Made by a program: the position numbers and the translations under genes. From an uncultured Bacilli bacterium (GTDB taxonomy: Bacteria > Bacillota_I > Bacilli_A > RF39 > UBA660), in NCBI GenBank assembly GCA_934101595.1, contig CAKORR010000005.1, positions 6,380 to 70,379 of the forward strand: 64,000 bases of DNA, read 5' to 3'. The notes beneath the pieces are model-generated. The model was not told the DNA's origin and ran no database searches. It saw only the letters and a list, made by a program, of their open reading frames with translations. Shown piece after piece: positions 3,263 through 62,946 of this stretch (positions are counted from its first letter, which is position 1; the number at the start of each line of letters is the position of its first letter).

Positions 3263-3844
3263 ATGGATGTATACGAATATATAAAAAAGAAAAATAATAA
3301 AAAGAATAATAAACTAAGCGATAAGTTTAGTAATGTTTTAACAAAAATATTAATCACTATCATATTTATATTTGTAAGCATAATATATGTAAAAAAAAGT
3401 GATGATAATTTAAAACTTTATAAAAAAAATGTTTTTGAAACAACGATATCTTTTAATCAAGCAAATAAATTTCTAAGCAAGTTTTTAGGCACAAAGAAAA
3501 AAATACCACTTATAAAAGATGCATATGTTTTTAATGAGGCAAATAAAACTCAAGAAAAGTTTTTGAATGGCACAAAAATAACGTACACAAGTATTACCCC
3601 TATAAAAGCATTGGAAAGCGGAGTAGTTGTATTTATCGGCGAGAAGGACAATTTAGGAAAAACAATTATTGTTCAAGGCACAGACGAATATGATATTTGG
3701 TATTCTAATGTAAGTGATTTTAATTTGAATATGTATGACTATATAGAAAAAGACTCAATAATAGGTAATTCCAATGAGGTAATTATTACTATTTCTAAAA
3801 ACGGTAACTTTATTGATTATGAAGAGTATCAAAACAAAGCTTAA
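3263..3844 (+). CDS. SpoIVFA-like protein with degenerate M23/LytM domain
   Basis: N-terminal TM plus a C-terminal LytM-like region (GVVVFIGEKDNLGKTIIVQGTDEYDIWY) lacking an obvious HxxxD/HxH metal site. Placed directly upstream of an M50 site-2 protease and of rplU-prp-rpmA-obg, as in the B. subtilis spoIVFA-spoIVFB locus. Confidence 0.45.
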   Translation: MDVYEYIKKKNNKKNNKLSDKFSNVLTKILITIIFIFVSIIYVKKSDDNLKLYKKNVFETTISFNQANKFLSKFLGTKKKIPLIKDAYVFNEANKTQEKFLNGTKITYTSITPIKALESGVVVFIGEKDNLGKTIIVQGTDEYDIWYSNVSDFNLNMYDYIEKDSIIGNSNEVIITISKNGNFIDYEEYQNKA

Positions 3845-4586
3845 GATAGATATAACAACTTATTTATTTGTTTTATTATATTTTTTATGCGGTTATATTA
3901 AAAATATAATTATCATATACATAATAATTATATTTCATGAATTTGGTCACGTTCTAGCTTCAAAAATATTAAAATATAAAATAACTAGTGTTACAATTTA
4001 TCCTTTTGGGGGAATTACCAAATCCGATCAATTAATTAACGCTCCCCTTAATAGCGACCTAATTATATATTGGGCGGGGCTCATTTTTCAAATAATTTTA
4101 TTTGTACCATTTATGTTATTTTACAAATTGGAAATAATAAATTTGAATACTCTAAAATTATTCGTTTATTTTAATATTTGTATTTTTTTATTTAATGCTC
4201 TTCCAATAGCGCCATTAGATGGATATTTAATTTTAAATAATATTTTAAATAGATTTACCTCATTTTATAATGCTAAAATTATAACTTATATTTTTTCGGC
4301 AATATTTATCGTATTTTTTATTTATTTTTATTATAGTAACTATATTATTTGGGTATTTTTAATCGTAAATCAATTAAAAGAAATAATAAATTTTAAATAT
4401 GTATTTAATAAATTTTTATTAGAGAGACATTTATATAAATTTTCATGGCGCAGAAAAAAATATTATAAAGAGATGAATCTTAAAAAACTTGAAAGAGAGA
4501 AACTTGGCCATTATTATAACGGATTTACATGGTTAAGTGAAAAAGATTTATTAAGTAAAATGTTTGACAAAAAGGGATATTTTTGA
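3813..4586 (+). CDS. M50 family site-2 metalloprotease, SpoIVFB-like
   Basis: HEFGH (HExxH) in a TM helix plus the [10 protein letters not shown] (NxxPxxxLDG) motif and a polytopic membrane topology. Gene order matches spoIVFB-rplU. Confidence 0.7.
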
Positions 4587-23810: not shown

Positions 23811-25481
23811 ATGAAAAAAGGTGTAGTAAAGAATGTTCTATTGTTTTTATTTGCTTTAGCGTTTTTTTCGCCAATCGTTAAAGCCGAAAAATTTGTTGCA
23901 GGAGAGAGCATTACAAGTGTTCCCATTTATCTCGATAAAATCACCAAAAAGAGTTATCGTTACTTTAAACCGGCTTATCGATCAAGTGACAACACAGTAT
24001 CATATTGTGTAGAGCCAGAAAAAGTAATAAGTACCACCAAAGATTACGAAAAAGTAACAAAAAATCAATGGGAGAGATTAAATGTTTCTAAAGAAAAGTG
24101 GGATAGGTTAACCAAAATTGCTTATTTTGGATATGGATATCAAAACCATACTGACATAAAGTGGAATGCTATAACACAATATCTTATCTGGCAAGAGGTG
24201 TTGCCTAATAATTGGTTTTTAACATTTACTGATGGCTACGAGGGAGAATTTAAGAATGTGTGGGAAAATGAAACAAATGAAATCATGTCACTTATAGATG
24301 ATTTTGAAAAATCCCCAAATATTCCCCTCAATATTAATGTTACAAAAAATAAAGAAAAAATCTTAACTGATAATAACGAAATTCTTAATAAATATTCAAT
24401 TAATAATGAAAATAAAGATATTGATGTTAAGATAATTGATAATAAGTTACACATTACGGCTAAGAAAAATGGTGATTATAAAATTACCTTAAAAAGAGGT
24501 GAATTTAAAGAAACTAGTTTGTATCTTGCAAGCGGTAGTCAAGGAGTCTTGACTCGTGATGGAAAAATAGAAAATAGTATTCAAATTAATATTTCGGTTA
24601 AATCAGGGAATTTAATTATAAAACGTGAAAGAGATAATTATTTGTATAATGAGAGCACAAATTATGATGCGTTGTATGAAATTACTGATAGCGAAAATAA
24701 TAAATATACAGTTTCTACTGATCAAGAAGGAGTGATAAACTTAATAGATTTACCAACTGGTAATGTAAAGGTAAAAGAAATTACTCCATCCGTTGGCTAT
24801 TATAAGGACGAAAATATATATGTTGATAATATAAAAAGTGATGATACAACTATTATAAATATTATTCCTAAGTTAATCAAAAAGAATGTATACATATCAA
24901 AAAAATATTATTTGAAAAATGATAATCTTTTGAGAAATGAAATTGGTTCCATTTTTTCCCTTCACAAGGATGAAAAATTTCTAAAATTACGTAAAACTAA
25001 CAAAGATGGAATCGTAATGTTTGAAATACCATACGGACATTACAGAATTATGCAAAACACTTCAAAAGAAGGATATGAATTAATGAAAGATTATAACATT
25101 TTTGTTACAAATGACGAAGATGAAAATTTTCAGTTTGTCAATTATCCCATAAACGAAGAAGAACCTATCGTGATTGTTAAAGAAAAAGAAGTACCAGTAA
25201 TTGTAAAAGAGGAAGTAGAAGTAGTAAAAGAAATTGAGGTAATTAAAGAAATACCTGTAGAAAAAGAAATTGAGGTAATTAAAGAGATACCTGTAGATAA
25301 AGAAATTGAGGTAATTAAAGAGATACCTGTAGATAAAGAAATTGAGGTAATAAAGACAATAGATCCTAACGATTATATCGAGGTTGAAAATCCCCATACT
25401 GGCGATGACACATTTAAAAATGTTATAAAATTAGGGATTTCGGCGTTAACAATCATGTTTTTTAGACGAAAAATGCAATAA
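23811..25481 (+). CDS. cell-wall-anchored surface protein with candidate thioester (TQXA-like) domain and NPHTG sorting signal
   Basis: Signal peptide. YCVEP (Cys66) and AITQYLIW (Gln123) resemble thioester-domain Cys/Gln motifs. 12-aa KEIEVIKEIPVD repeats. C-terminal NPHTG, a hydrophobic stretch and an RRKMQ tail. Confidence 0.5.
   Translation: MKKGVVKNVLLFLFALAFFSPIVKAEKFVAGESITSVPIYLDKITKKSYRYFKPAYRSSDNTVSYCVEPEKVISTTKDYEKVTKNQWERLNVSKEKWDRLTKIAYFGYGYQNHTDIKWNAITQYLIWQEVLPNNWFLTFTDGYEGEFKNVWENETNEIMSLIDDFEKSPNIPLNINVTKNKEKILTDNNEILNKYSINNENKDIDVKIIDNKLHITAKKNGDYKITLKRGEFKETSLYLASGSQGVLTRDGKIENSIQINISVKSGNLIIKRERDNYLYNESTNYDALYEITDSENNKYTVSTDQEGVINLIDLPTGNVKVKEITPSVGYYKDENIYVDNIKSDDTTIINIIPKLIKKNVYISKKYYLKNDNLLRNEIGSIFSLHKDEKFLKLRKTNKDGIVMFEIPYGHYRIMQNTSKEGYELMKDYNIFVTNDEDENFQFVNYPINEEEPIVIVKEKEVPVIVKEEVEVVKEIEVIKEIPVEKEIEVIKEIPVDKEIEVIKEIPVDKEIEVIKTIDPNDYIEVENPHTGDDTFKNVIKLGISALTIMFFRRKMQ
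25230..25358 (+). repeat. 36-bp tandem repeat x3.6 (coding KEIEVIKEIPVD units)
   Basis: gaaattgaggtaattaaagagatacctgtagataaa repeated head-to-tail, with one variant unit. Confidence 0.9.
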
Positions 25482-40597: not shown

Positions 40598-42172
40598 TTA
40601 AAACTTTTTGAAGTTAAAAAATATATCAACACATCCATTCTCATGTATAGAAATTTTTTTAATCAGTTTCAAAACTAAATCCCTACTTGGATACTTATCC
40701 TTAAATGATAGAACCTCTTCTTGTAATGATTTAAAGATATTTTTACTTTTATTTATTTTTTCTAAATAACAATTGATCTCACTTAATTTTTCTTTTTTTG
40801 CCAAAATATCTTTGTTAAATTTGGTCTCTATCCTTTGGTACATATCTTCATTTATTTTATTCTGTAATTTATCAATGTACATATTATCCAAGTTATTTTT
40901 AATATTATCTATCTCAAACTCTAATTTATTTTTTATCTTATTATAAGAGGATAGTATATCGTTATTTTTATATTTTTTTAATACTTCTTTATCTAGTATT
41001 TTATTATTTACCATATATATTATTTTTTTTATTTCGTTAACTACACCTAGTTCTAAATTGTCATAATCAAAACCATGAGCGGTGCATAATCTAGGACTCT
41101 TATTATATTTTCGATAATAATTACATACCGTAGTACTTTTTCCATTGGCCCTTCTCGCTCTAATTCCAATATTATGGCCACAATCAGCACATCTTAGTAA
41201 GCCATCTAATAAAAACATTTCTTTTTTATCATTTCTTTGATGTTGATTTGGTAATAATTGTTGAACTCTATCAAATGTTTCTTTATTAATAATAGCGTCA
41301 TGTGTATTTTTAACTATTACCCATTCTTCTTTAGGATTGCAAATTATTTTACGGTATTTATAACTTAGTCTAGAACGCTTATTTTGAACTAAATCTCCAG
41401 TATATAATCTATTTTGCAATATTTTTTTTATAGTAGTATTGCACCAGTACCCTAAAATATTTCCATTTTTTCCAGATCTTATAAAATTTCTGTTTCTAGT
41501 TATAGAAAATGTGGGTATATTCTCACTATTTAATATATCTCTTATTTTATTAATTCTTATACCATTGGTAAACATATCAAATATTCTTTTAACAATTGGT
41601 GATTCAATTTCGTCTTTTACTAGATGATTCTTATTATTTGGATCGGTTTTATAACCAAAAGGGGGACATCCCCCTACCCATTTGCCTTCACATTGCATAG
41701 TATGCAGTGCTGTTCTAATTTTTTTTGATAAATCTTTCGCATACATATCATTTAATATTGCTTTAAATGGTGCAATGTCATTATTAGAATTATCTAAAAA
41801 AGTATCTATATTATCTGTTAAGGCAACATACCTAATATTATGAGCAGGAAACCATTTTTCTATATATTCACCAGTACCAATGTAATCTCTTGATAATCGT
41901 GATAAATCTTTAGTAATAACCATATTTACCCTTTTATTCTCAATGTCTTTTAACATTCTTTTAAAATTAGGTCTATCAAAATTAGTACCTGTAAACCCAT
42001 CATCAACATATATATCAACTAAAGTATATCCTTTTTCCTTTACGTAATTAGTTAATAATATTTTTTGATTTTGAATACTTTCACTTTCCCCTAAATTATC
42101 ATCTTCTTTAGATAACCTTATATAGATTGCTACCAAGTATTCTTTTACTATATTTTTTAAAACATTATACAT
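40598..42172 (-). CDS. large serine recombinase (resolvase/invertase N-domain plus zinc ribbon plus coiled coil)
   Basis: AIYIRLSKEDD (catalytic Ser), VITKDLSRLSRD, Cys-rich CADCGHN...CNYY...CTAH, and length 524 aa. Confidence 0.85.
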   Translation of the reverse strand: MYNVLKNIVKEYLVAIYIRLSKEDDNLGESESIQNQKILLTNYVKEKGYTLVDIYVDDGFTGTNFDRPNFKRMLKDIENKRVNMVITKDLSRLSRDYIGTGEYIEKWFPAHNIRYVALTDNIDTFLDNSNNDIAPFKAILNDMYAKDLSKKIRTALHTMQCEGKWVGGCPPFGYKTDPNNKNHLVKDEIESPIVKRIFDMFTNGIRINKIRDILNSENIPTFSITRNRNFIRSGKNGNILGYWCNTTIKKILQNRLYTGDLVQNKRSRLSYKYRKIICNPKEEWVIVKNTHDAIINKETFDRVQQLLPNQHQRNDKKEMFLLDGLLRCADCGHNIGIRARRANGKSTTVCNYYRKYNKSPRLCTAHGFDYDNLELGVVNEIKKIIYMVNNKILDKEVLKKYKNNDILSSYNKIKNKLEFEIDNIKNNLDNMYIDKLQNKINEDMYQRIETKFNKDILAKKEKLSEINCYLEKINKSKNIFKSLQEEVLSFKDKYPSRDLVLKLIKKISIHENGCVDIFFNFKKF

Positions 42173-44119: not shown

Positions 44120-45001
44120 TTAAAATTCCTTTTTTTCATGGGGATGATTCTTGTAATCATTCTTTATTTTTTCATTACTTAAATGAGTATATATTTGAGT
44201 AGTTGATATATCGCTATGCCCTAATAGTTCTTGAACTATTCTTAAATCAGCGCCATTATTGATCATATGAGAAGCAAATGAGTGTCTTAAAGTATGGGGT
44301 GATATATCTTTTTTTATATTTTTTTCAAAACATATTTTTTTAATTATCTTAAAAAAGCCTTGTCTTGTCATTTGTCTACCAAAATTATTCAAAAAAACAT
44401 ATTCAGAGATATTATTTTTAAGGATTAAATTGCGGTAGGTTGTAATATAATCCTTTAAGTATGCCGAGGCAACTTCTCCAAACGGAATTAATCTTTCTTT
44501 ACTTCCCTTTCCATAAACACGAATTAAATCATCAGTAAAAGAAATATTTGATATTTTTAAATTTATAAGTTCAGATACTCTAAGGCCTGTTGAATATAGT
44601 AATTCAAGCATAGCTTTATTACGATAATCCAAAGGTGTTTTAGTTAGTATATCAAGAAGAATGTCTACCTCCTCTATTGTTAAAAAATTAGGTAATTTTT
44701 TTCTTAATTTTGGCTGAGATATATCTTCAGTTGGATTTATTTTAATCCTACCAATAAAATTTAAATATTTATAAAAAGTTTTTAATACTGTCAAATAATG
44801 AGCTCTTGTGGTATCACTCTTCTCTCTATTCATTTCCAAGAATTTTTTTACATCTTTTCTAGTTACATTAGTAGTATCTTTTTTGGATAAAGAATTTAAA
44901 AATAATTGTAAATTTTCTTCATATGATTTGACAGTATTTTCGCTTAATTTTCTTTCATATTTTAAGTAATCTAAGAAATCTAAAATATTTTGATCTTCCA
45001 T
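44120..45001 (-). CDS. xerD: tyrosine recombinase XerD-like
   Basis: C-terminal HTLRHSFASHMINNGADLRIVQELLGHSDISTTQIYTH (R..HxxR..Y catalytic set) and a SAM-like N-domain. 293 aa. Confidence 0.75.
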   Translation of the reverse strand: MEDQNILDFLDYLKYERKLSENTVKSYEENLQLFLNSLSKKDTTNVTRKDVKKFLEMNREKSDTTRAHYLTVLKTFYKYLNFIGRIKINPTEDISQPKLRKKLPNFLTIEEVDILLDILTKTPLDYRNKAMLELLYSTGLRVSELINLKISNISFTDDLIRVYGKGSKERLIPFGEVASAYLKDYITTYRNLILKNNISEYVFLNNFGRQMTRQGFFKIIKKICFEKNIKKDISPHTLRHSFASHMINNGADLRIVQELLGHSDISTTQIYTHLSNEKIKNDYKNHPHEKKEF

Positions 45002-46320: not shown

Positions 46321-49300
46321 TTAATTTTCTTTTCTTCTTTTAATTTTTACTAAACCTAATAAAATAGATGACAATCCTAATACGCTTAGCCAAGGATTTG
46401 TATCAATTCCAGTTTTAGGAGGCTCTATATCTCCTTCTCCAGCTGACACATAATATACTTTTATAACATTTTCATCGTTATTGTTTGAAATAGTAAGTGG
46501 AAGATTCTCTACTTTATCTAAGGCATAATATGTTGGCATTTTATCAGTATATGTTTCAACAACATCTAAGAAAGATTGATTTGTAAACACATCAGTTTTA
46601 GAACTATCTATTTCGCCATCTAGATAATATAAAACACTATAAGAAAGGTCAGTTCTTTTATTATATTTAAATACAATTTCGTTTAATGCTTCATTGTAAT
46701 GAACTGTTAATGTTTTTCCCTTATCTTTAGTGGTATATCCATCAATATCTATTGGATATTCTTTAACCTCGCACATATAAGTTTGATTTTCAACTATTTT
46801 GCGTGGAGCGATTTCTTTATTAGTCTCAGCATCAATGTATTTTACAACATATCTTAAATCATTTCTTTTCTCGTATAAAAATACTATAACATTCTCGCCT
46901 TCATCACTAATTGTAATCATTTTAATTGGCTCTGAAACAAGTTTGTATCCATCTATTTTAATATATTCTTCTTTTATAACATCTTTGTATTTTAGATTTC
47001 TTACTACCTTGTTATCACTAATTGAATTGCCTGTTTTTTTATCCAAATATTTAACTGCATAACTTAAATTATCTTTTATTTTGTAATAAAAAACTATTTC
47101 ATTGTTTTCTACATCAATTTTAAGTTCTTTGGTTTTTTCATCATCTAATACATAGCCTTTTATATCTATGGCATCTTCTTTTACAACATTCCTGTATCTT
47201 TGATTTTTTACAACTTTTTCATTCTCTAGAGACTTACCAGTTTCTCTATCTAAGTATTTTACTGTGTATTCTAAATCAGTTCTAATGGTATATCTAAATA
47301 CTATTTCATTATTTTCGGTATTTATTTCGATTGATTTAGTATTATCACCCATTAATATATAGCCTTTTATTTCAATTGCTTCTTCAGTATGAATAGATTT
47401 ATATTCTTTATTTTTAATAGTTTTAGAGTTTGCAATTTCATTATTAGTTTCATCATCAACATAACGTACTTTAACACTATATTTCTTTCTTGGGTATAAG
47501 AATTCAATTACTTTATTTTCTTCATCAATAACCACATCTTTAGTGCTTTCTTCGGGCATTAAATAACCTTTTAAAGCTGGTTTAGCAGTAAGATGAACAT
47601 TTTCCATATAAGTTATATTATCAAACTTTTCATCGTCATATAAAGGTGTTCTGTCAACTAAATCAAGATATCTTACAGTGTATTTGAAATCAGTTCTCTT
47701 GTAATAACAAACATTAATATAATTATCCTGATCTTTAACGACATATGAACCACTTTCATGCATGTTAGATGAACTAACTACACCATTTTTATAGCCAAAA
47801 CTTGGCTTATAAGCATTTAAAATATCATCATTTAATGTCACTTCGTCTAAAAATGTCTTATTTTCTTCAGTAGCACTACCAAGTTTATTTGAATTATCTT
47901 GTGAATCTTTAAAATAATTAATCGTATATTTTAAATTACTTTTTTTAGTGTAAATTATATTTATAATATTTTTTTCGTTATCAATATTAATCACAAAGTC
48001 TTTATTTTCATTAATAGTGTTATATCCATCTGGCTTTTTTAGATTTTCATCAACATTAATTAGTGATCCAACCTCACCTTTTCCATTTAATCTATACAGT
48101 AAATTATCTTCTGACATACTGTCTTTATAATAATTAACTTGATAGTTACTTAAAATGTAATAAACTGATGAACTGTCAGAAATTTTAACAGAGTCTTTAG
48201 AGTTATTAGGCTTATCATATGAAACTTCCGCATATTCATTAGTTTCATTCCATCCATTTGAAAGATGGCTTTCTAAAGCTTTTATTTTAAAACTTACACT
48301 ACTACCAGTTTCAGTAATATTACCTATATCAAATGTTATTTCATTATCATTAATTGTAGCATTGGAAGGTGAAGCACTTCCAGGTATATATTCAAATCCT
48401 TCTTTTATTACATCTTTTATTTTAGCATTAGTTCCAGCTGGTGATGTAGTTGTAATATTACTAGTTATAGCTTTAAAATCATCATTTAACTTATTTCCTG
48501 TATTAGCTAAATAAAAGTAACTAGGTTTTGTAGCAATATTTTGTAATAACTTTTTCTCGTCTTTATATTTATATTCTGGATCAAATCCAAAGCCTATTGT
48601 AAAAATATCATCAACGATACCTTTTGCATAATTTGCAGCGTTCATAGTATCATTAACATAATTTTCAGTAGTCCATTCTAAATCACCTGGTAAATCATAA
48701 CTTTCTGGCATTCCGTCAGTAAGTAAAATAATATGTTTTGAGTCTTTACCATTCAATTTATTAGCTGCTAAACGTAATCCAGCGGCAATATTAGTAGCAG
48801 ATTCAAGGCCTGAAAATTCACCTTCAGAAAAATGACTCTCTTCAGCGGAAAAATCAGATTTAGTAAATGCTTGCGATTTAAAATTCCTTTGTAATTTGGC
48901 ATTATCCCCAAATTCAACTAAGGCTATTTTCGCTTTTGGATACTTCTTTAATAAACTCTTAGAAAATTCAATCGCTTTCTCTTTAGCAATATTTATTTTG
49001 TAATCATATTCACATTGCCAATCATATTCACATTCATTCTTTGACATTTTCCATGCCATAGTTGTTGATATATCCAATACAAAAACTATATAAGGCACGG
49101 CTTCTTTAAATTCTGATGTAGTAACATTTTTGCCTTTAACGTCTAATGTAACTAAGTATTCGCCATCAACATCTGTTTTACTTACTGTCTTAGTTAATTT
49201 AACATCTCCTGGTTTAGATAATGAGCCATTATCATTTACAGGATCTTTAATGTCCCAAGTTTTATTAGTATTTGCTAATACTATTCCATAATTTCCAAAA

Positions 49301-49368
49301 TTTGAAAAAAGAATTGCAAATACCATAAAAATTCTTAATAAAAAATCAAATTTAGTATTCTTTTTCAT
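46321..49368 (-). CDS. large cell-wall-anchored adhesin (vWA domain plus ~5 MucBP-like repeats plus PPKTG sorting signal)
   Basis: Signal peptide. MIDAS-like VLDISTTM...LTDGMPE. Repeated ~70-aa DL(E/R)YTVKYLD... units. C-terminal PPKTG, a hydrophobic stretch and KIKRRKEN. Confidence 0.7.
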   Translation of the reverse strand: MKKNTKFDFLLRIFMVFAILFSNFGNYGIVLANTNKTWDIKDPVNDNGSLSKPGDVKLTKTVSKTDVDGEYLVTLDVKGKNVTTSEFKEAVPYIVFVLDISTTMAWKMSKNECEYDWQCEYDYKINIAKEKAIEFSKSLLKKYPKAKIALVEFGDNAKLQRNFKSQAFTKSDFSAEESHFSEGEFSGLESATNIAAGLRLAANKLNGKDSKHIILLTDGMPESYDLPGDLEWTTENYVNDTMNAANYAKGIVDDIFTIGFGFDPEYKYKDEKKLLQNIATKPSYFYLANTGNKLNDDFKAITSNITTTSPAGTNAKIKDVIKEGFEYIPGSASPSNATINDNEITFDIGNITETGSSVSFKIKALESHLSNGWNETNEYAEVSYDKPNNSKDSVKISDSSSVYYILSNYQVNYYKDSMSEDNLLYRLNGKGEVGSLINVDENLKKPDGYNTINENKDFVINIDNEKNIINIIYTKKSNLKYTINYFKDSQDNSNKLGSATEENKTFLDEVTLNDDILNAYKPSFGYKNGVVSSSNMHESGSYVVKDQDNYINVCYYKRTDFKYTVRYLDLVDRTPLYDDEKFDNITYMENVHLTAKPALKGYLMPEESTKDVVIDEENKVIEFLYPRKKYSVKVRYVDDETNNEIANSKTIKNKEYKSIHTEEAIEIKGYILMGDNTKSIEINTENNEIVFRYTIRTDLEYTVKYLDRETGKSLENEKVVKNQRYRNVVKEDAIDIKGYVLDDEKTKELKIDVENNEIVFYYKIKDNLSYAVKYLDKKTGNSISDNKVVRNLKYKDVIKEEYIKIDGYKLVSEPIKMITISDEGENVIVFLYEKRNDLRYVVKYIDAETNKEIAPRKIVENQTYMCEVKEYPIDIDGYTTKDKGKTLTVHYNEALNEIVFKYNKRTDLSYSVLYYLDGEIDSSKTDVFTNQSFLDVVETYTDKMPTYYALDKVENLPLTISNNNDENVIKVYYVSAGEGDIEPPKTGIDTNPWLSVLGLSSILLGLVKIKRRKEN

Positions 49369-49379
49369 AGTTTTCCTCC

Positions 49380-50054
49380 TTAATTAATTTTTTTTGCACT
49401 TATGACTAAAAATGAATTTGCCGGTTTATAATAACATGTTTGTAGTGTGATAATTTTATCATTTTTATTCACTGAAACATGAGTATCATAAATACTTTCT
49501 TCCTTGAGCCAATTTAAGTGTGTAATCCAATCGGAATCATTAAAACTAACAATAGTGTGAGGATATTTTTTAGCCTTTTTGATCATTATCGAAAAAATCT
49601 CCCACTTAGTCTCTTCAGAATTTAGATTTAAATAAATATACTTATTTTTAATATAAAAATCCTCATTTAAATAAAGTTCCAAATCATGAAAAACTGCATT
49701 TTTTAATGTTCTCGAATTATGACCATATATTAATAATTTACGGTCTATAATATTGTTACGATAATCTAAAAACACTTTGTCTGGATATTTTAAATAAAAT
49801 TTATTATCATTTGCCTGAAATATTTTTGTATTAATATTTGTGTTAGGAATTTTTATATATCCTACGATGTTTTCATCTTTTATTTTGTCACTCTCTTTTT
49901 TATCTGTAACAATATCTTTATTATATTCGTTACTCTTAATAGTAGATACAGCCTTATCATTGATGCTAATATTCTTATATCCAAAAGTAAATAATATTAT
50001 TATCAATAAAAAGCTTGCCAGAACAACCTTTAAATTTTTCACAAAGGTCCACAC
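49380..50054 (-). CDS. srtB: class B sortase
   Basis: N-terminal TM, YGHN and TLQTC catalytic motifs. Length and sequence closely parallel C. difficile SrtB. Confidence 0.8.
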   Translation of the reverse strand: MWTFVKNLKVVLASFLLIIILFTFGYKNISINDKAVSTIKSNEYNKDIVTDKKESDKIKDENIVGYIKIPNTNINTKIFQANDNKFYLKYPDKVFLDYRNNIIDRKLLIYGHNSRTLKNAVFHDLELYLNEDFYIKNKYIYLNLNSEETKWEIFSIMIKKAKKYPHTIVSFNDSDWITHLNWLKEESIYDTHVSVNKNDKIITLQTCYYKPANSFLVISAKKIN

Positions 50055-50137
50055 TCCCTTTTAAGAATATTCGAACACACAATTAATAGTACCATATTAA
50101 AACGTAATGTCAACACTATTTGTCTTATAATGTCGTT

Positions 50138-50812
50138 TTAACGAATTAAGTCACTAATCACATGGCTAGCAATTATAAATCCTGCAGCATTCGGTACAAA
50201 AGGTGTACTTCCGGGTACTCTATCGGAAACTTTTTTAGGAAGTTCGTCACTTGTTAAAACAACACATTTTTTTAAATTAATATGCTCATTTTTAACGATT
50301 TTTCTCATTACTTTAGCAACTGGATCATTCATAGTTTTATCTAAAGTAGTAATTTTTAGTTTGGTCGGATCAAAACGATTACCTGTACCAAGGCAAGTTA
50401 TTAGTTTTCTATTATTATTAAAAGCATATTTTATAATATCTTTTTTAGTGGTTATCGTATCACAGGCATCAATTATATAATCATAATCATTAAGTATTTC
50501 CAAATTATTTTTAGTAAGAAAAGTAGCCAGAGCCGTAATATTACACTCAGGATTTATGCTTTTTGCTCGTTTTTCGGCAACATCAACTTTTTTAAAACCA
50601 ATATTATCCATATTAGTAATAATTTGCCTATTAAGATTAGTAATATCTACATTATCATTATCAATTATTTTAATGTTTTTTATACCACTTCTTACTAGAC
50701 CTTCTAAGACTGCTCCACCTACTCCTCCAACACCAACTATTACAACTTTAGCGTTTGCTATTTTTAAAAAATCACTTTCACTAATTATTTTCTTTAATCT
50801 ATCAAATTGCAC
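50138..50812 (-). CDS. tcdA: ThiF/HesA-family protein, tRNA threonylcarbamoyladenosine dehydratase-like
   Basis: GVGGVGG nucleotide loop and NLNRQ, with ThiF-family length. Confidence 0.65.
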   Translation of the reverse strand: MQFDRLKKIISESDFLKIANAKVVIVGVGGVGGAVLEGLVRSGIKNIKIIDNDNVDITNLNRQIITNMDNIGFKKVDVAEKRAKSINPECNITALATFLTKNNLEILNDYDYIIDACDTITTKKDIIKYAFNNNRKLITCLGTGNRFDPTKLKITTLDKTMNDPVAKVMRKIVKNEHINLKKCVVLTSDELPKKVSDRVPGSTPFVPNAAGFIIASHVISDLIR

Positions 50813-51061
50813 AATATCACTCCATTAAAAAACCCAAAAGGTAGTTTGCTGTGATAAAAAACCTGCACACGCAAGGTGGGTATGCACATGACTATCTTTA
50901 GGATCCTAATTCACTTAATGGATTAGTCTTCAACACGGATAATCAATTAGATTCCCTTATATATCACTTAGTCGGTTTTATGAAAAACAAACTATCCTTC
51001 CAGGTATTAATATTATAACATATTTTCTAATTCTAATACATAAAATTTATCATCTTTACAT
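50813..51061 (-). ncRNA. candidate structured 5' leader (riboswitch/attenuator) of the tcdA-srtB-adhesin operon
   Basis: 249-nt untranslated gap with locally elevated GC (ccugcacacgcaaggugggu...). It ends in a bulged 5-bp hairpin plus U6 about 50 nt before the tcdA start. Confidence 0.25.
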
Positions 51062-52831
51062 TTAATTAACTTCTGATTTCCAGCATTTTGAAACGTCGCA
51101 ACTTGAACTATAAGGAGTTGGGTTTGGCATATCCATTTTAATGATCATAGGAATTTTAAAAGCACTTCCAAAACCTACACAACTTCCTGGTTGCAATACT
51201 TTTTGCTTTTCTATTACATCACTTGATATATTTGGTAACATTTCTTCAATATATTTTATGTCTTTAGGATGGGTCATTTTAAAAATCAAAAAGTTTGAAC
51301 ATTGAGCAATAACGGTATCAGAAATTTCAACTGGTCTTTGGGAAATAATGTCAAGTAAAACTCCATATTTACGTCCTTCTTTAGCAATACGGTCAAAAAT
51401 ATTATAACCAATCAAGAAAGTATCAATATCTTTTTGAATATATCTATGGGCTTCTTCTAAGAACAAATGATATGGTTTACTTGCTCTATCTTTCATTTTT
51501 TTAGAAGCTTCAAATAATAATCTTGAAAATATTTTAACAATTACTTTGGCGTAAACATCATCAATATCTTCCAAATTTATATTAATAATTTGAGCTTCAG
51601 CGCCATTTATTTTAGACAAGGAATCAATATATTCATTTACATCCCAATACTTATCTCCTGAAAAGTAAGAGCCAACTTTGCTAGTAATTATACTATTAAT
51701 TCTTACTTTCAAAATTATAGCGTCAGAATAAAGATTTTCATTTCCTTGAAATCCTTCACTAATTAATGTGAATTCTAAAGCTTTTCCAAAATCCTTAATA
51801 GAATAATAACTATTATCTGGAACGACTATATTTTCAATATCATCTTTAATATAACTTAATATATAGTTAGTAATTAAAACACTTTCCCCAAAATAGCCAT
51901 TCGAATCAATTTCAAAACATTCACTAAATGTTCTAGTGTAACCTAATCCAGGTATCACTGAATCAAAGTTAAATTCCTGGGTATTACATACTTCGATAAT
52001 AGTGAATATTTCATTTTTTTTACTAGCTGTTGTTTGATTAGAAAATAAAACTGCTAGTAATGCTTTTGCAATTAAATGATTTTTATAAATTCTTGCTTCT
52101 TCGTTATTTTGGGCAAATATCTTGGCTAATCTTATCGTTCTTTCAATTATTGGAAGTTGGCTGTGATTTGTAGCTTGTAACATTAAAGCCCAATCATCAA
52201 GGGTTAATAAATGAGTTGGAATATCAAGCTTAAAATCATTTGCTGACTCCACATTAGTAGTAATAAATTTATAATTATAATTAGGATCAATTTGATTTAA
52301 CGAGCTGAATGCATTTTTATACTCGCCATATGCATCAAAGAAAAATAATTTTGCTTTAGCTGTGTGCATATTGGGATTTGCAAATATATTTTGAACAATT
52401 CTTGAAACACCACAAGATTTACCACTACCTGAATTACCAAATATCGCTAAATGGTTTGAAAATAACGCGTTGATTTCCGGATAAATAGTAAAATTTTTAT
52501 AGGTTGCACTACGGCCAAGTTCAAATGATTTATCACTTGGAGAGCCTATTAATAAAAGCAGCTCAGAATTATTAATTATTCTTATTTTTGAAGACAATAA
52601 TGGTTTTCTCATAATACCATTTAAATATCTTCCATTTACATACTCACCTAGAAATCTAATTTTCATAGTTTTATCATTTAATTCAGTAATTTCTCCTAAT
52701 ATTCTTTGATCTTGCGATTCAAAAATAACATGAACATTCATTAAATCTGCTGATATATTGCCTTGTGAAATATTTTCAACCTCTGCAATATTATCAGAAA
52801 TGTAAAGTATCCTTCCAAACATAATAGTCAC
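51062..52831 (-). CDS. HerA/FtsK-like (DUF87-type) ATPase, solitary
   Basis: N-terminal HAS-barrel-like region, Walker A GNSGSGKS, Walker B HLFLEEAHRY. 589 aa. Confidence 0.5.
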   Translation of the reverse strand: MTIMFGRILYISDNIAEVENISQGNISADLMNVHVIFESQDQRILGEITELNDKTMKIRFLGEYVNGRYLNGIMRKPLLSSKIRIINNSELLLLIGSPSDKSFELGRSATYKNFTIYPEINALFSNHLAIFGNSGSGKSCGVSRIVQNIFANPNMHTAKAKLFFFDAYGEYKNAFSSLNQIDPNYNYKFITTNVESANDFKLDIPTHLLTLDDWALMLQATNHSQLPIIERTIRLAKIFAQNNEEARIYKNHLIAKALLAVLFSNQTTASKKNEIFTIIEVCNTQEFNFDSVIPGLGYTRTFSECFEIDSNGYFGESVLITNYILSYIKDDIENIVVPDNSYYSIKDFGKALEFTLISEGFQGNENLYSDAIILKVRINSIITSKVGSYFSGDKYWDVNEYIDSLSKINGAEAQIININLEDIDDVYAKVIVKIFSRLLFEASKKMKDRASKPYHLFLEEAHRYIQKDIDTFLIGYNIFDRIAKEGRKYGVLLDIISQRPVEISDTVIAQCSNFLIFKMTHPKDIKYIEEMLPNISSDVIEKQKVLQPGSCVGFGSAFKIPMIIKMDMPNPTPYSSSCDVSKCWKSEVN

Positions 52832-57488: not shown

Positions 57489-58754
57489 TTAGAACGTAGA
57501 AACAATGTAATCTATTATTTCTGCTTCATCAACTTTTGTTTCTTCTTTAGTTATATTATCTTTAACATTTATTAAGCCTCTACTTAAATCATCACTATTT
57601 AATATGATTAAAGCTTTGGCCATAAACCTATCAGCTTCTTTAAATTGAGCCTTCAACCCTCTATTATTATTTTCGGTTTCAACTTTTAAGCCACTCATCC
57701 TTAAATCTTGAACTAATGATAGAGCTTTTAATTTTTCTTCTTCATTTACATACATTACAAAAACATCTATACCAGAATTAAGGCTATCAGCTTCATTAAT
57801 AGTATTCAAAACCGTTACAAGTCTGTCTAAGCCAAAAGCCATTCCAACAGCAGGTATATCTGGTCCACCTAATTCATTTACTAAATTATTATATCTTCCA
57901 CCAGCTCCTAACGTATTAGCATTACCTAAATCTTTTAATTGAGTAGTAAATTCAAAAACTGTGTGATTATAATAATCTAATCCTCTAACAATATTAGAAT
58001 CAACTTCATAATCAACATCTAAAAGATCTAAATATGACAAAATTGTTTTAAAACGTTTACTGCTTTCTATATTTAAATAATCTAATATATTAGGAACATT
58101 TTTAAGTATTTCATTATCTTTATCAAATTTACAATCTAAAATCCTTAATGGATTTGTTTTGAATCTAGATTGACAATCTGGGCATAATTCATTAATGTGT
58201 GGCTCCAAATAACTCTTTAGAGCCTTTTTATAGTCTTCACGCGACTCATTATCACCCAAAGAATTAATGTGTACGGTTACATCCTCAATCCCAGCTTCTT
58301 CAAGGAAACGATAACCCATACTTATTACTTCAGCATCAATATAAGCATCATCACTTCCTAAGGCTTCAACACCAAACTGGGTAAACTCTCTAAATCTACC
58401 TGACTGAGGTCTTTCATAACGATACATTGTACCATTATAATATAATTTTTTAGGCATAATTGCATCGCCATACATTTTGTTTTCTATAAAACTACGTACA
58501 ACCCCAGCGGTTCCTTCTGGCCTTAATGTTAGCGATCTGTCAGAGCGATCTTTAAAATCATATGTTTCTTTTTTTACTATATCAGAGCTTTCACCAACGC
58601 TTCTATGAAATAATTCACTATTTTCAAAAATTGGCGTTCTTATAAATTCATAATTGTAGCAACTACAAAGCTCATCTATAAGTCTATTTAAATAAAGCCA
58701 CGTTCTAGAATCCTTTCCATAAATATCACATGTTCCTTTTGGTTTTGTAATCAT
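57489..58754 (-). CDS. hisS: histidine--tRNA ligase
   Basis: Class IIa motifs, GGRYNNLV...GMAFGLDRL and a C-terminal anticodon-binding domain. Confidence 0.95.
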   Translation of the reverse strand: MITKPKGTCDIYGKDSRTWLYLNRLIDELCSCYNYEFIRTPIFENSELFHRSVGESSDIVKKETYDFKDRSDRSLTLRPEGTAGVVRSFIENKMYGDAIMPKKLYYNGTMYRYERPQSGRFREFTQFGVEALGSDDAYIDAEVISMGYRFLEEAGIEDVTVHINSLGDNESREDYKKALKSYLEPHINELCPDCQSRFKTNPLRILDCKFDKDNEILKNVPNILDYLNIESSKRFKTILSYLDLLDVDYEVDSNIVRGLDYYNHTVFEFTTQLKDLGNANTLGAGGRYNNLVNELGGPDIPAVGMAFGLDRLVTVLNTINEADSLNSGIDVFVMYVNEEEKLKALSLVQDLRMSGLKVETENNNRGLKAQFKEADRFMAKALIILNSDDLSRGLINVKDNITKEETKVDEAEIIDYIVSTF

Positions 58755-58771: not shown

Positions 58772-58930
58772 AAAAACCTAGCTCATGTAAGGACGGATAA
58801 TCCGCGGTGCCACCTTACTTTACTAGGTACTCTCATAAATTTATCGCATTTCTGCGTTTTCTAATATGTAAAGTTGTTCATTTCTTTTATAAACCATTAG
58901 GCATTCCCAGCATCTAGCCCTCTCTTAAAA
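58772..58930 (-). promoter_or_regulatory. T-box riboswitch leader upstream of hisS
   Basis: The minus-strand RNA contains AGAGAG...GGGAAUGCC (stem I) and the T-box sequence AAGGUGGCACCGCGG, followed by a hairpin and U7 just before the hisS RBS. Confidence 0.6.
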
Positions 58931-58977
58931 CTTTAAATAAAATACTTTTTCTTTACTTAGAAAAATTATTATAGTCT

Positions 58978-59088
58978 TATTTTATAGCAATTACGTGTTT
59001 TAGTCAATAATTCAATTAAAAAATATAAAAAAACCATTAACGTGGTTTTCTTGTTCTCGTTAATGGCTTATCTTCTATCATAGGTGTT
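58978..59088. repeat. ~110-bp conserved 3' module (copy 1): last 10 codons plus hairpin ccattaacg/cgttaatgg plus ~60 bp downstream
   Basis: Near-identical (about 5 mismatches) to 59668..59766. Confidence 0.8.
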
Positions 59089-59630
59089 GTTAATTGCTCA
59101 TAATTTGGAGCTTTAGTTATAGTTTTTTCTACATATTCTTTATTAGATTCCTGTAATTGGTCATTAGTAACTCTTTCTTGTTCTAGAGTTTCAGTTCTAT
59201 ATTCACTATAACTTCTTACAATTTCTCTAGCTTTTTTTAAAGACTCTTTTTTTGCTTTTAAATCTTTCGACTTACCAGAAGAAACATCAACTTTTTTAAA
59301 TAGACGCATAACACCGACGCCGTTTGAAATGCATAATGTGAAAAGTATTGCGAGGTGTGGCAAAGCGTAACCGCCTAAACCTTTTAAATTAACTAATCCT
59401 TCTAAAATGGTAAATATAAAAAGCAGTCCAAATGCACTATAGCACCCATCGAGAAAACTACATAGTCGTTCAAATCTACTTTTTTTCTTTTCATCATCTA
59501 TTTTATCAATTCTTTCACAAAGTTCTATCTCTTTTTTTGTTAATTCCTCTTCAGAAGTATTATTATTAACTAGTTCCATAACTTCATCTATAGGATTTAT
59601 TTCGTTTTCTAAAATATTTTCATCTTCCAT
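59037..59630 (-). CDS. 2-TM membrane protein of unknown family (paralog 1)
   Basis: Acidic N-terminal ~55 aa, two adjacent TM helices, a C-terminal ~90 aa coiled/charged region and the tail EDKPLTRTRKPR. Confidence 0.4.
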   Translation of the reverse strand: MEDENILENEINPIDEVMELVNNNTSEEELTKKEIELCERIDKIDDEKKKSRFERLCSFLDGCYSAFGLLFIFTILEGLVNLKGLGGYALPHLAILFTLCISNGVGVMRLFKKVDVSSGKSKDLKAKKESLKKAREIVRSYSEYRTETLEQERVTNDQLQESNKEYVEKTITKAPNYEQLTTPMIEDKPLTRTRKPR

Positions 59631-59667
59631 GTAGGTTCCTCTTTTCTTTTTGAAACATGATATTAAA

Positions 59668-59766
59668 TATTTTATAGCAATTACATGTTTTAGTCAATAA
59701 TTCAATTAAAAAATATAAAAAAGCCATTAACGTGGTTTTCTTGCTCTCGTTAATGGTTTATCTTCT
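59668..59766. repeat. ~110-bp conserved 3' module (copy 2)
   Basis: Near-identical to copy 1. It includes an inverted repeat that encodes ...PLTRARKPR and acts as a terminator-like hairpin followed by a T-run on the coding strand. Confidence 0.8.
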
Positions 59767-60305
59767 GAAACTTTTTTATTATATACAGGAATATCATCTA
59801 AAGATTGATATGGCATTACAATATTTGGACTTTTAATTTTACAACTTTGTGATGGCCCACTATAATTATTTTCGCGGGATAATTCGTGAGTCTTATTTTT
59901 ACAATAGCTTCTAATTAACCCTTGTGCTTCTTCTAAATCCTTTTCTACAAAAGTTAAATTGTTTAGTTCTTGCATATTCTCATTGTTTTTTCGAGTTACA
60001 GAAACATATCTAAAAGCGGCCGCCGTTATGGCTATATTGCAAATTGTTGCATGAATAAAAAAATGCTTTTCACCAGTTAGCGAATATTGAATAAGATCAT
60101 AAATTAGATATCCAAGTTCGCCCATTACCGCAGTTAAAGTTATAAAAAAGCCAGAACTGGCAATTTTCTTACTAATATTTAATGCTTTAATTTTTTCCTT
60201 TACTTCGAAAAGAGTATTAGAGATTTGTGATGCTTTTGCGTCAATCAATTCTTCACTCGCACCAGTATCAATTAAATATTCAACTTCTTCATATGAACTT
60301 TTCAT
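59727..60305 (-). CDS. 2-TM membrane protein of unknown family (paralog 2)
   Basis: Same architecture as paralog 1, with the tail EDKPLTRARKPR. The body is diverged. Confidence 0.4.
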   Translation of the reverse strand: MKSSYEEVEYLIDTGASEELIDAKASQISNTLFEVKEKIKALNISKKIASSGFFITLTAVMGELGYLIYDLIQYSLTGEKHFFIHATICNIAITAAAFRYVSVTRKNNENMQELNNLTFVEKDLEEAQGLIRSYCKNKTHELSRENNYSGPSQSCKIKSPNIVMPYQSLDDIPVYNKKVSEDKPLTRARKPR

Positions 60306-60361
60306 AAAAATTCCCCCTCATTAGTGACTAAATTATATCATTTTTGTAAAATAATGTCAAA

Positions 60362-60796
60362 TTATCGCTCCAACAGCAAAGTTGTTGGACCATCATTAAT
60401 GAGGGCTATTTTCATATCTGCCCCAAAAACACCAGTCTTAGTTGGTACTAAATTATTTAGTTTTTTATTAAATTCATCATATAAAATAGTGGCCTTTTCT
60501 CTTTTCATCGCTTTAACATAACTTGGCCTATTTCCACTTGAGGCATCGCCATATAGTGTGAATTGACTAATTGATAAAATCTCTCCTTGAACATCTAAAA
60601 GCGATTTATTCATAACACCATTTTCATCTTCAAAAATTCTTAGTTTTGGTATTTTATTAATCATATAATCTATTTTTTCACTATTATCATTATCGGTAAA
60701 ACCTACAAATACAACTAAGCCTTTTTTAATATTATTATATACCTTATTATCTATAGAAACGGAAGCACTTAAGCATTTTTGAACTAATACTCTCAT
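60362..60796 (-). CDS. dtd: D-aminoacyl-tRNA deacylase
   Basis: MRVLVQKC... N-terminus, SQFTLYGD motif, 144 aa. Conserved relA-dtd order. Confidence 0.9.
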   Translation of the reverse strand: MRVLVQKCLSASVSIDNKVYNNIKKGLVVFVGFTDNDNSEKIDYMINKIPKLRIFEDENGVMNKSLLDVQGEILSISQFTLYGDASSGNRPSYVKAMKREKATILYDEFNKKLNNLVPTKTGVFGADMKIALINDGPTTLLLER

Positions 60797-62946
60797 TATA
60801 TTACCTCAACTACATAGCGTTGTTTTTCTAAATCTAATTTTAATTTGTTAAGTTCTTGAGATGATTTAACTTTAACTACTATTTCATACTTATTATAATT
60901 GGCTTGATTTAATGTTTTTACCGAGTCTATAATTATATTTTTCATTGTGGCAAGTGTCAAAATATCTAACAAATAGTTTTTATCTTGTTCCGTAACTATA
61001 GTTATATTTGTTAAATAAGAGTTATCAGACTTATCGTTCCAACTCACTTCTATTAGTCTATCGCTATCATTTAAAATGTTTACGCAATCCTTTTTATGGA
61101 TAGTTATTCCTTCCCCACGAGTTATATAGCCAACTATAGGATCCCCTTTAATTGGTCTACAGCATTTAGCCAAGGAAACCATTATATTATCTGCCCCAGC
61201 TACTATAATATCACTTTTATAATTTTTACTATAATCATGATTTTGTTTACTAATTTTTTCAATCAAGGCATCTTCAACAGTCGATTTATCATTTGAAGTT
61301 AAATTAATAATATAACCTGGGGTAAAACGTAGTGAACCAAGCGATAGATAAATATCATTAATATCCTTTAACTTAAGATCTTTACATATTTTTAAAATAT
61401 TACCGTCATTCAAAATGTCTTGAAAAGCAAGTTTTCTTTTTCTAAGCTCCCTCTCCAAGAGTTCTTTGCCTCTTTCAATATAAATATCGCGATCTTGCTT
61501 ACTAAAATAGGCTTTAATTTTATTTTTAGCCTGAGTTGTTTTTACTATCTTTAGCCAGTTTTTACTTGGCGTTGCTGATGAACTTGTCTTTATTTTAACT
61601 ATGTCATTATCCATTAGTTCATGGTCTAAAGGAACCATAACATCATTAACGATTGCTCCGACCGTTTTATCACCAACATCACTATGAATTCGGTAGGCAA
61701 AATCAATTGGTGTAGATCCTTTCGGAAGCTCCACAACGTCCCCTTTAGGTGTAAAAACGTAGATCATTTCGTCAAGGAATTCTTTCGTGACTTCATTGGT
61801 AAAGTCAATATCGTTTTCTAAAGATTCCGATGTCTCAATGGCATTTCTAAACATTTCTAGTTTTTGTTCCATAATATTTTGAACTTTTTTACTACCTTTT
61901 TCTTTATACGACCAATGTGACGCAAGACCTTTTTCGGCTATTTCATCCATTTCAGTTGTTCTAAATTGAACTTCAAACAAACGACCATCGACTCCAAAAA
62001 TAGTTGTGTGTAGTGATTGGTACATGTTTTCCTTTGGCATGGCAATGTAATCTTTAAACCTCTTTGGAATTGGCCTGAATTTTGAATGAACAAGGCCTAC
62101 AGCAAGGTAACAGTCACTTTCCCTCTCTAAGATAACTCTTAAAGCCAGAAAGTCATATATTTCATTCCATTTTTTCCCTTTGGATAATTTATTGTAAATA
62201 CTGTAGACACTTTTTACTCGTCCTTTTATTTCAAACTGCAAGCCGTTTTTCAATAAAATATCAGTTATTTCTTCCTTCATCTCATCTAAGGCTTTATTAA
62301 GTTCATTTCTGCTATTATTTAATTTTTCCTCGATATCTTTATATACCTCTGGCTTTGTATATCGTAAGGACAAATCTTCTAACTCACTTTTAATAGAGTT
62401 AATACCTAAGCGATGAGCAATTGGCACTAATACGGTTAAAGTTTCATTGGCTTTTCTCTTCTGCTTTTTGGGATTTACTGCCCATATGGTTCGCATATTA
62501 TGTAGTCTATCTGCTAATTTAACATATAAAACTCGTACATCTTCAGACAATCCAACTAAAACTTTTCTTAAGTAAATAGCTGAAGAGTCCGAATCATCTT
62601 GGAGCTCTAATTTATTAATCTTTGAAATAGAAGTTACAATTTTTTTTATTTCTGGGGAAAAATTTTTCTCAAGATCTTCTTCAGTAGCGTTGCCATTATT
62701 AATTACTTCATGCAATAATGCACCTTGAATTGTTTCAACATCAACGTTTAATGATAGCAAAATATATGCAACATTCAAAGGATGCGTTATATAATCTTCA
62801 TTAGTTAACCTTTTTCTTCCTTCATGCATCTTTAACGCATATTGGTAAGCTTTTTTTATTTTTTCTATATCATCATTATTTTTATATAAATTTTCAGCTT
62901 TTTTTATAAAATCTTCATAGCTTATTTTATCGTATTTCATCATCAT
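60796..62946 (-). CDS. relA: bifunctional (p)ppGpp synthetase/hydrolase RelA/SpoT
   Basis: HD hydrolase domain, synthetase domain, TGS and ACT. 716 aa. Confidence 0.95.
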   Translation of the reverse strand: MMMKYDKISYEDFIKKAENLYKNNDDIEKIKKAYQYALKMHEGRKRLTNEDYITHPLNVAYILLSLNVDVETIQGALLHEVINNGNATEEDLEKNFSPEIKKIVTSISKINKLELQDDSDSSAIYLRKVLVGLSEDVRVLYVKLADRLHNMRTIWAVNPKKQKRKANETLTVLVPIAHRLGINSIKSELEDLSLRYTKPEVYKDIEEKLNNSRNELNKALDEMKEEITDILLKNGLQFEIKGRVKSVYSIYNKLSKGKKWNEIYDFLALRVILERESDCYLAVGLVHSKFRPIPKRFKDYIAMPKENMYQSLHTTIFGVDGRLFEVQFRTTEMDEIAEKGLASHWSYKEKGSKKVQNIMEQKLEMFRNAIETSESLENDIDFTNEVTKEFLDEMIYVFTPKGDVVELPKGSTPIDFAYRIHSDVGDKTVGAIVNDVMVPLDHELMDNDIVKIKTSSSATPSKNWLKIVKTTQAKNKIKAYFSKQDRDIYIERGKELLERELRKRKLAFQDILNDGNILKICKDLKLKDINDIYLSLGSLRFTPGYIINLTSNDKSTVEDALIEKISKQNHDYSKNYKSDIIVAGADNIMVSLAKCCRPIKGDPIVGYITRGEGITIHKKDCVNILNDSDRLIEVSWNDKSDNSYLTNITIVTEQDKNYLLDILTLATMKNIIIDSVKTLNQANYNKYEIVVKVKSSQELNKLKLDLEKQRYVVEVI

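Follow-up and report, generated by a model that had tools for sequence, protein, structure and literature searches.

Intrinsic terminators adjoined by sigma-A promoters are known from A+T-rich genomes of the Firmicute/Mollicute type and consist of a stem-loop, a U-run and hexamers spaced by 17 nt. In insertions and amplifications flanked by direct repeats, which arise by Campbell-type integration or unequal recombination, the insert lies between two copies of a pre-existing segment, and its loss leaves one copy. Integron attC cassettes are small single-gene units of variable presence in which a palindrome overlaps the 3' end of the gene, and the SLATT/DUF4231 effectors are small proteins with two adjacent hydrophobic transmembrane (TM) helices and flanking soluble helices. 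Features of each of these systems occur together between dtd and hisS in an uncultured Bacilli bacterium. We analysed this site in a window of 64 kb (the whole stretch of DNA, taken from contig CAKORR010000005.1), where a direct repeat of 99 nt, here termed the module, covers the 3' end and the adjoining downstream sequence of each of two small open reading frames (ORFs), ORF A and ORF B.

The site differs from an ordinary terminator-promoter junction in being duplicated (96-98% identity), in its 15-nt loop and in having the stop codon and the last codons within the stem. Like a direct-repeat-flanked insertion it allows only the distal gene to be lost, but the homologous stretch measures just 99 bp, the reading frame of the insert continues into the coding part of the repeat, and there is no known donor. 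In contrast to integrons, there are no attC boxes, neither an integrase nor attI, two units only, and a promoter on the unit. The best matches to the attC core sites RYYYAAC/GTTRRRY were, by reading, CATTAAC and GTTAATG, with 5 of 7 positions each; an integron cassette was rejected because paired R and L boxes and extrahelical bases are missing, the 12-bp stem is uninterrupted and the unit bears a promoter. Unlike SLATT/DUF4231 effectors, the two genes have housekeeping neighbours and no partner genes of nucleotide signalling or defence. This family, suggested as a lead by the initial annotation of the region, was dropped, as neither protein gave a profile match at E <= 1 or a PADLOC match below 1e-3.

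We consider it likely that the module is a composite gene junction duplicated around the strain-variable ORF B, and not a special element. This reading builds on the anatomy of the module, the identity of its promoter, the abrupt edges of the repeat and the polymorphism among strains.

Results

The repeated module joins a gene end to a promoter

All coordinates are positions in the window, and every gene of the region lies on the minus strand. The site is organised as follows:

60796-62946, minus strand: relA, upstream of dtd
60362-60796, minus strand: dtd (PF02580), left border of the variable site
59727-60305, minus strand: ORF A, orphan membrane protein of 192 aa (from the ORF list)
59668-59766, minus strand: upstream copy of the module, with the last 12 codons of ORF A, the hairpin, the T-run and the copy of the hisS promoter that faces ORF B
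59037-59630, minus strand: ORF B, orphan protein of 197 aa with the architecture of ORF A (from the ORF list)
58978-59076, minus strand: downstream copy of the module, with the last 12 codons of ORF B, the hairpin, the T-run and the promoter of the hisS T-box
58786-58962, minus strand: T-box leader (RF00230) of the hisS-asnS-like operon, preceding hisS
57489-58754, minus strand: hisS (PF13393), right border of the variable site

The initial annotation had described two genes for proteins of about 195 aa, inserted between dtd and the T-box of hisS and interrupting the order relA-dtd-hisS. Its coordinates hold, and direct adjacency of dtd and hisS is indeed the state in the relatives L012, L016 and L040, in which a gap of 268-283 bp holds the leader only. 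The neighbours relA, dtd and T-box-hisS were constant in every strain compared. Past hisS follow a 459-aa class IIb synthetase (AsnRS-like), gatC and gatA, in this order.

The two module copies are 96% identical over 99 nt in the window and 98% identical in most strains. The module is the sole long dispersed repeat of high identity in the 64 kb, and the chance expectation for one of its 20-mers in the window is 0.00. It starts with the last base of the codon preceding Glu, encodes EDKPLTR(T/A)RKPR and the stop codon (ORF A ends in EDKPLTRARKPR, ORF B in EDKPLTRTRKPR), and ends 1 base past a -10 hexamer; inside it, an A/T-rich stretch separates the T-run from the promoter. Beyond either edge the two copies are unalignable, and the edges are abrupt. 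Together, ORF B and one module form a unit of 690 bp. In-frame length variation occurs just 5' of the module (window 59767-59780; positions 3077-3093 of L002), where L002 has an additional KVSD that corresponds to a 9-nt tandem duplication of AAGTTTCAG; compared with the other strains, one extra Lys is present in the window.

The contrast between diverged gene bodies and a near-identical 3' module had been recognised at the outset, and the figures agree with it (96% for the module, 20% at the amino acid level for the bodies without the tail). The ~60 bp past the stop codon had not been recognised as a T-run and the putative native promoter of the hisS T-box. Since the hisS promoter lies in the downstream half of the module, this stretch must precede both ORF B and hisS; nothing demands the special functional RNA that had been considered. 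A survey for further copies of the module, initially delimited as 110 bp, found none in the window, in viral contigs or in metagenomes of the Joint Genome Institute (JGI) outside the same locus.

A hairpin spans the stop codon of both genes

Each module copy carries a candidate terminator:

59721-59759, minus strand: hairpin of the upstream module (arms 59748-59759 and 59721-59732; 15-nt loop; T-run at ~59705-59720)
59031-59069, minus strand: hairpin of the downstream module (arms 59058-59069 and 59031-59042; 15-nt loop; T-run at ~59015-59030)

In the 12-bp stem, AAGCCATTAACG pairs with CGTTAATGGTTT across the 15-nt loop. The stop codon TAA, that of ORF A in the upstream copy and that of ORF B in the downstream copy, lies inside the 3' arm, and T7ATAT6 (U7AUAU6 in the transcript) follows directly. 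The structure thus has the stable stem-loop and the immediate U-run of an intrinsic terminator. A free energy of -11.9 kcal/mol was computed for the hairpin alone. Compared to shuffled sequences, the 71-nt stretch around it gave z = -4.6 for the downstream copy and z = -2.2 for the upstream copy of the window. The weaker value of the latter is due to an A.C mismatch that is private to the window; the remaining two-gene strains lack it in their upstream copies. The proposal of the initial annotation that the last codons form a terminator hairpin therefore stands as far as the terminator-like structure and its T-run are concerned; the stem, given there as 9 bp, comprises 12 bp.

No terminator was predicted between dtd and ORF A, and the module hairpin is thus the first candidate stop for transcripts of relA-dtd-ORF A. 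With the stop codon lying within the stem, it is possible that a terminating ribosome would hinder formation of the hairpin. Terminator hairpins close to stop codons have precedents in reduced genomes rich in A+T; in Mycoplasma gallisepticum, predicted terminator hairpins cluster by stop codons (PMC4245973).

The downstream half of the module carries the promoter of the hisS leader

The promoter scan yielded three promoters at the site, one of which is also backed by sister species:

60332-60360, minus strand: P1 for ORF A, a perfect TTGACA-17-TATAAT with TG extension (promoter scan)
59669-59697, minus strand: promoter copy TTGACT-17-TAAAAT before ORF B (promoter scan)
58979-59007, minus strand: native hisS T-box promoter TTGACT-17-TAAAAT (promoter scan and sister species)

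TTGACT-17-TAAAAT matches the sigma-A consensus at 10 of 12 positions and was called in both module copies. The ribosome-binding site AAGAGGAA and the ATG of ORF B at 59630 are located downstream of the promoter copy. At the hisS promoter, the window reads TTGACTAAAACA(C/T)G...TAAAAT. The hexamers TTGACT and TAAAAT, in the context TTGACTAAAA(C/G), are also present in the sister species L006 and L016. In L016, where dtd abuts the leader, TAA is followed by 6 bases and TTGACTAAAACC...(17)...TAAAAT, and in L006, which is the closest species found and whose HisS is 76% identical, TTGACTAAAAG...(17)...TAAAAT precedes the leader. The counterpart in L012 is TTGACG-17-TAGAAT. By comparison with these species, the downstream half of the module is the predicted native sigma-A promoter of the hisS T-box leader. 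As this promoter is conserved in relatives, hisS would be transcribed from the downstream module copy, in which the end of ORF B precedes the promoter. P1 begins 1 nt past the stop codon of dtd; in relatives with a bare gap, the hisS promoter begins 6-10 nt past that stop codon.

The T-box leader matched RF00230 over the full model (1-219) with E 4.6e-18 and carries the GGUGGCACCGCG box. It was missing from a default scan because its score of 83.3 bits is below the gathering score of 93. The bulge of its antiterminator reads UGGC, which presumably pairs with a G73 discriminator and not with the C73 of tRNA-His. The specifier region reads AAC-A in the window and in L006, where the next gene encodes a 459-aa AsnRS-like enzyme, and GAC-A in L012 and L016; the next gene of L012 encodes a 429-aa AspRS-like enzyme. 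Judged by general T-box rules, the leader probably senses tRNA-Asn or tRNA-Asp, not tRNA-His. On the plus strand at 59838-59890, TTTACA-17-TATAAT followed by a terminator-like hairpin lies antisense to the 3' part of ORF A and probably occurs by chance.

Presence of ORF B with one module varies among strains

Two classes of strains were observed at the locus. The order ORF A, module, ORF B, module, T-box was present in the window, in L001 (and 13 similar contigs), L002, L003 and L005, and the order ORF A, one module, T-box in L086 (from the JGI scan), L088/89, L090-92 and L093/94. None of the contigs carrying these proteins had ORF B without ORF A, which fits a crossover between the modules, as this removes only ORF B. 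The junction block is present twice because ORF B, lacking in some strains, sits between two copies of it. The term 'cassette-like', used in the initial annotation, is fair insofar as ORF B with one module varies in presence among strains; its overall interpretation is partly supported.

According to single-nucleotide polymorphisms (SNPs) in the flanks, the window, L001, L002 and L003 form a tight cluster and L005 is farther off, and the A-only strains represent four separate, deeper lineages. Position 82 of the module is T in every single module and in the upstream copies, and C in most downstream copies. Both SNP clustering and position 82 mildly favour a gain of ORF B with one module in one lineage.

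ORF B is nearly invariant (3 of 594 nt differ between the strains carrying it). ORF A is 92-100% identical overall between strains, with a hot spot to which nothing similar occurs in ORF B:

60000-60199, minus strand: hypervariable segment of ORF A (hydrophobic hairpin, codons ~48-106)

Within this segment, strains that are ~99-100% identical elsewhere show a nucleotide identity of 84-95%. Synonymous as well as nonsynonymous differences are raised (synonymous differences per site, pS, up to 0.26; ratio of nonsynonymous to synonymous differences, pN/pS, 0.5-3), and the alleles are mosaic. Such variability is a weak hint that the segment takes part in an interaction on which selection is diversifying or relaxed. 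A target of a diversity-generating retroelement was rejected, as substitutions of all types occur and are not confined to adenine; no second copy of 60000-60199 was found in the window, and the screen for reverse transcriptases did not cover all ORFs of the window. Two A-only lineages carry a broken ORF A, with a premature stop at codon 34 in L090-92 and a start codon changed from ATG to ATA in L093/94, indicating that the gene is dispensable; these two lineages have no intact gene of the ORF A/B family at the site.

ORF A and ORF B encode diverged orphan membrane proteins

With the shared tail included, ORF A and ORF B were 26% identical over 117 aa (BLASTP, E 4e-7); without it, identity was 20% over 149 collinear residues (E 0.018). 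Outside the module, the same codon is used at 16 of the 33 shared residues other than Met and Trp, and 16.7 are expected from local codon usage. Codon identity at chance level indicates that synonymous sites are saturated and that the bodies split long ago or are barely related. The module, by comparison, appears to be either young or kept identical.

Each protein has two hydrophobic segments and a basic C-terminal end, as had been described. An acidic N-terminus had been ascribed to both proteins; it is clearly acidic in ORF B (net charge -11) and mildly so in ORF A (net charge -2). AlphaFold2 models, built from shallow alignments, reached a predicted local distance difference test score (pLDDT) of 76 for ORF A and 71 for ORF B. 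In both, a short N-terminal helix is predicted to precede a two-helix hairpin (residues 18-77 and 82-145 in ORF A, 27-81 and 89-172 in ORF B) with the hydrophobic segments at its tip, and the C-terminal end is predicted to be disordered, over 45 aa in ORF A. Lys and Arg border both hydrophobic segments. Under the positive-inside rule, this placement suggests that both termini are cytoplasmic and that a loop of ~8 residues alone is exposed outside. Most likely, the two are accessory membrane proteins that the cell can do without and whose ends both lie in the cytoplasm.

The initial annotation could not name the family, and neither could we: Pfam, NCBIfam, PADLOC and PHROG gave nothing significant for either protein, and a profile search of the PDB gave no match. 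Among 5.8 billion clustered proteins, word-indexed searches found only relatives from the same species. When 1.84 billion representatives were searched in full with HMMER profiles, only fragments and a repeat artefact (P0010) were added. A lead for ORF A, the superinfection exclusion protein SieB (PF14163; E 0.021, 14.9 bits), was rejected as it lies below the Pfam cut-off of 26. A phage origin was rejected as well, as viral contigs contained neither a module match nor a protein match. The ORF A/B family is undescribed and has no assigned function.

The dtd-hisS gap holds different genes in related species

A HisS scan with one genome per species yielded 80 loci of uncultured gut Bacilli (L006-L085; labelled Mycoplasma sp. 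CAG:776, CAG:956, Coprobacillus sp. CAG:605, Candidatus Coprovivens, Onthousia and similar). Where dtd shares the contig, its distance to hisS ranges from 268 to 5357 bp. The gap contains the leader alone in three species and one to five genes, differing by lineage, in the others. Eight of the 10 representative gap proteins scanned had no Pfam match, and the remaining two were a rhodanese lipoprotein (L006) and a Fic/DOC protein (L018). The interval between dtd and the hisS promoter and leader, which ORF A occupies in this species, therefore appears to be a site where lineage-specific genes accumulate in this clade of gut Bacilli.

Using phmmer and jackhmmer, no homologues of ORF A or ORF B were found in the dtd-hisS gap of 34 related species, nor did the gaps of the relatives contain repeated modules. 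In L022, a 187-aa orphan encoded directly after dtd (3630-4193) has an architecture like that of ORF A and ORF B and the tail ISRTRKKNNIK, and its gene has its own hairpin across the stop codon. Its match to the A/B profile was weak (hhalign, E 1.6e-3, probability 16%); nothing was found for L079_4173. The L022 protein may be a distant relative of ORF A and ORF B. In that case, the family would have had its basic tail from early on, and the tail would not be a by-product of the hairpin.

Tandem families of ~200-aa proteins occur in the gap of L007, L008, L010, L011 and L021. In these five loci, the last gene before hisS ends in ...SRSLR with CGTTAA (L007, 5700-5760), and the -35 element TTGAC lies within 5-6 nt of the gene end and can pair with the final codons (CGTTAA/TTGACG). 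The gene end overlaps the hisS promoter, as at ORF B.

Other features of the window

The recombinases nearest to the locus, both 15-18 kb away from it, are the following two:

40598-42172: large serine recombinase (Resolvase, Recombinase and Zn ribbon domains)
44120-45001: Xer-like tyrosine recombinase

The serine recombinase may mark an integrated element. The region 46321-52831 encodes a VWA/MucBP surface protein (1015 aa), a sortase, a ThiF-family protein and a HerA/DUF87-type ATPase (589 aa), and a 6S RNA is located at 50827-51009. At 25185-25390, within an ORF of 556 aa (23811-25481), there is an 18-nt coding tandem repeat, with units of approximately EIEVIKEIPV(E/D)K as judged by eye.

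Discussion

The reading that we favour, a gene junction duplicated around ORF B, has several points against it. The hairpin departs from the short loop (3-8 nt) and G+C-rich stem of intrinsic terminators, with a loop of 15 nt and G-C pairs at 4 of 12 positions, and a simple terminator scan did not call it because the loop limit of the scan was 8. The search for module copies spanned the 64-kb window and short contigs only, and none of the collections searched yielded a donor of ORF B. At module positions 10, 44 and 82, the same variants recur in varying combinations among copies and strains, showing that exchange continues; polarising gain against loss by module variants was abandoned on this account. 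Given the reshuffled variants and the ease of deletion between 99-bp repeats, repeated loss of ORF B is a candidate besides its gain.

Such losses are part of another explanation, which we regard as rather unlikely: ORF A and ORF B would be old tandem paralogues whose module is kept by gene conversion under selection on EDKPLTRxRKPR, the terminator and the promoter, with A-only strains resulting from repeated deletions. The collinear architecture and the common (I/V)RSY motif of the two proteins speak for it, as do the module variants common to copies and strains, the easy deletion between the repeats with B-only strains unseen, and the possible distant L022 homologue at the same position with its ISRTRKK and a hairpin over the stop codon. 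However, similarity stops sharply at the repeat edges instead of fading out, four independent deletions would be needed versus one or two gains, and position 82 is T in all single modules but C in most downstream copies. A recent simple tandem duplication of one gene with its 3' flank, the case that the initial annotation had itself set against its interpretation, is practically excluded: although the genes are of the same size and lie head to tail with a 690-bp period, the bodies have diverged anciently (20% identity, saturated synonymous sites, codon use at chance) and the 3' module is near-identical (96-98%).

The 690-bp unit with an imperfect palindrome at its 3' end and its presence or absence across strains also recall an integron-like cassette mobilised by a recombinase, with the hairpin as the site-specific recombination site. 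We consider this very improbable. The arms of the two window copies are perfectly complementary to each other across the copies, but this complementarity vanishes when the other two-gene strains are compared; the plain 12-bp stem lacks the two-box structure of attC, the promoter lies inside the module, no recombinase gene is located within 14 kb, and there are two copies only, anywhere searched. Hybrid attL/attR sites from insertion of a circle were dropped because G (position 23) and C (position 44) of the window do not occur in the upstream copies of the remaining two-gene strains, which have A..T. Small repeats with promoters or terminators are known in other bacteria, and the search reached the window and short contigs only. 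Nevertheless, we give hardly any credence to the module being a member of a dispersed intergenic repeat family resembling miniature inverted-repeat transposable elements (MITE) or repetitive extragenic palindromes (REP) and carrying a terminator and a promoter. The 64-kb window contains two copies only, the orthologue of the promoter half in sister species is the promoter of hisS, and the scan of JGI metagenomes gave the same locus only.

If the junction was duplicated around ORF B, ORF B would have entered by a crossover through the module, either Campbell-type or unequal homologous, and the two 99-bp repeats would now permit its loss by RecA-type recombination. ORF A and ORF B would each end at the same terminator, and ORF B and T-box-hisS would start from the same promoter. 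The hairpin may terminate transcripts of relA-dtd-ORF A and of ORF B and thereby insulate the T-box-controlled operon, and the promoter copy would provide constitutive expression of ORF B. The parts are ordinary and the duplication is of a known type, a direct-repeat-flanked insertion; a new mechanism is not demonstrated.

A more far-reaching view is doubtful: dtd-hisS would be a recombination-driven cassette locus at which fast-evolving membrane-hairpin genes with a common conserved module are added, lost and swapped among strains via that module, diversifying a protein in an arms race with phages or bacteriocins. The hint of an arms race comes solely from the variable membrane hairpin of ORF A, which, if this view were true, would be the interacting surface.

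As the favoured reading has it, a new gene can settle beside an essential, tightly regulated operon without disturbing it, as the terminator and the promoter are copied along with it. The comparison also marks the dtd-hisS junction as an accessory site that varies between strains and species in a clade of uncultured gut Bacilli about which little is known, and the two orphan membrane proteins encoded there are candidates for strain-specific traits.

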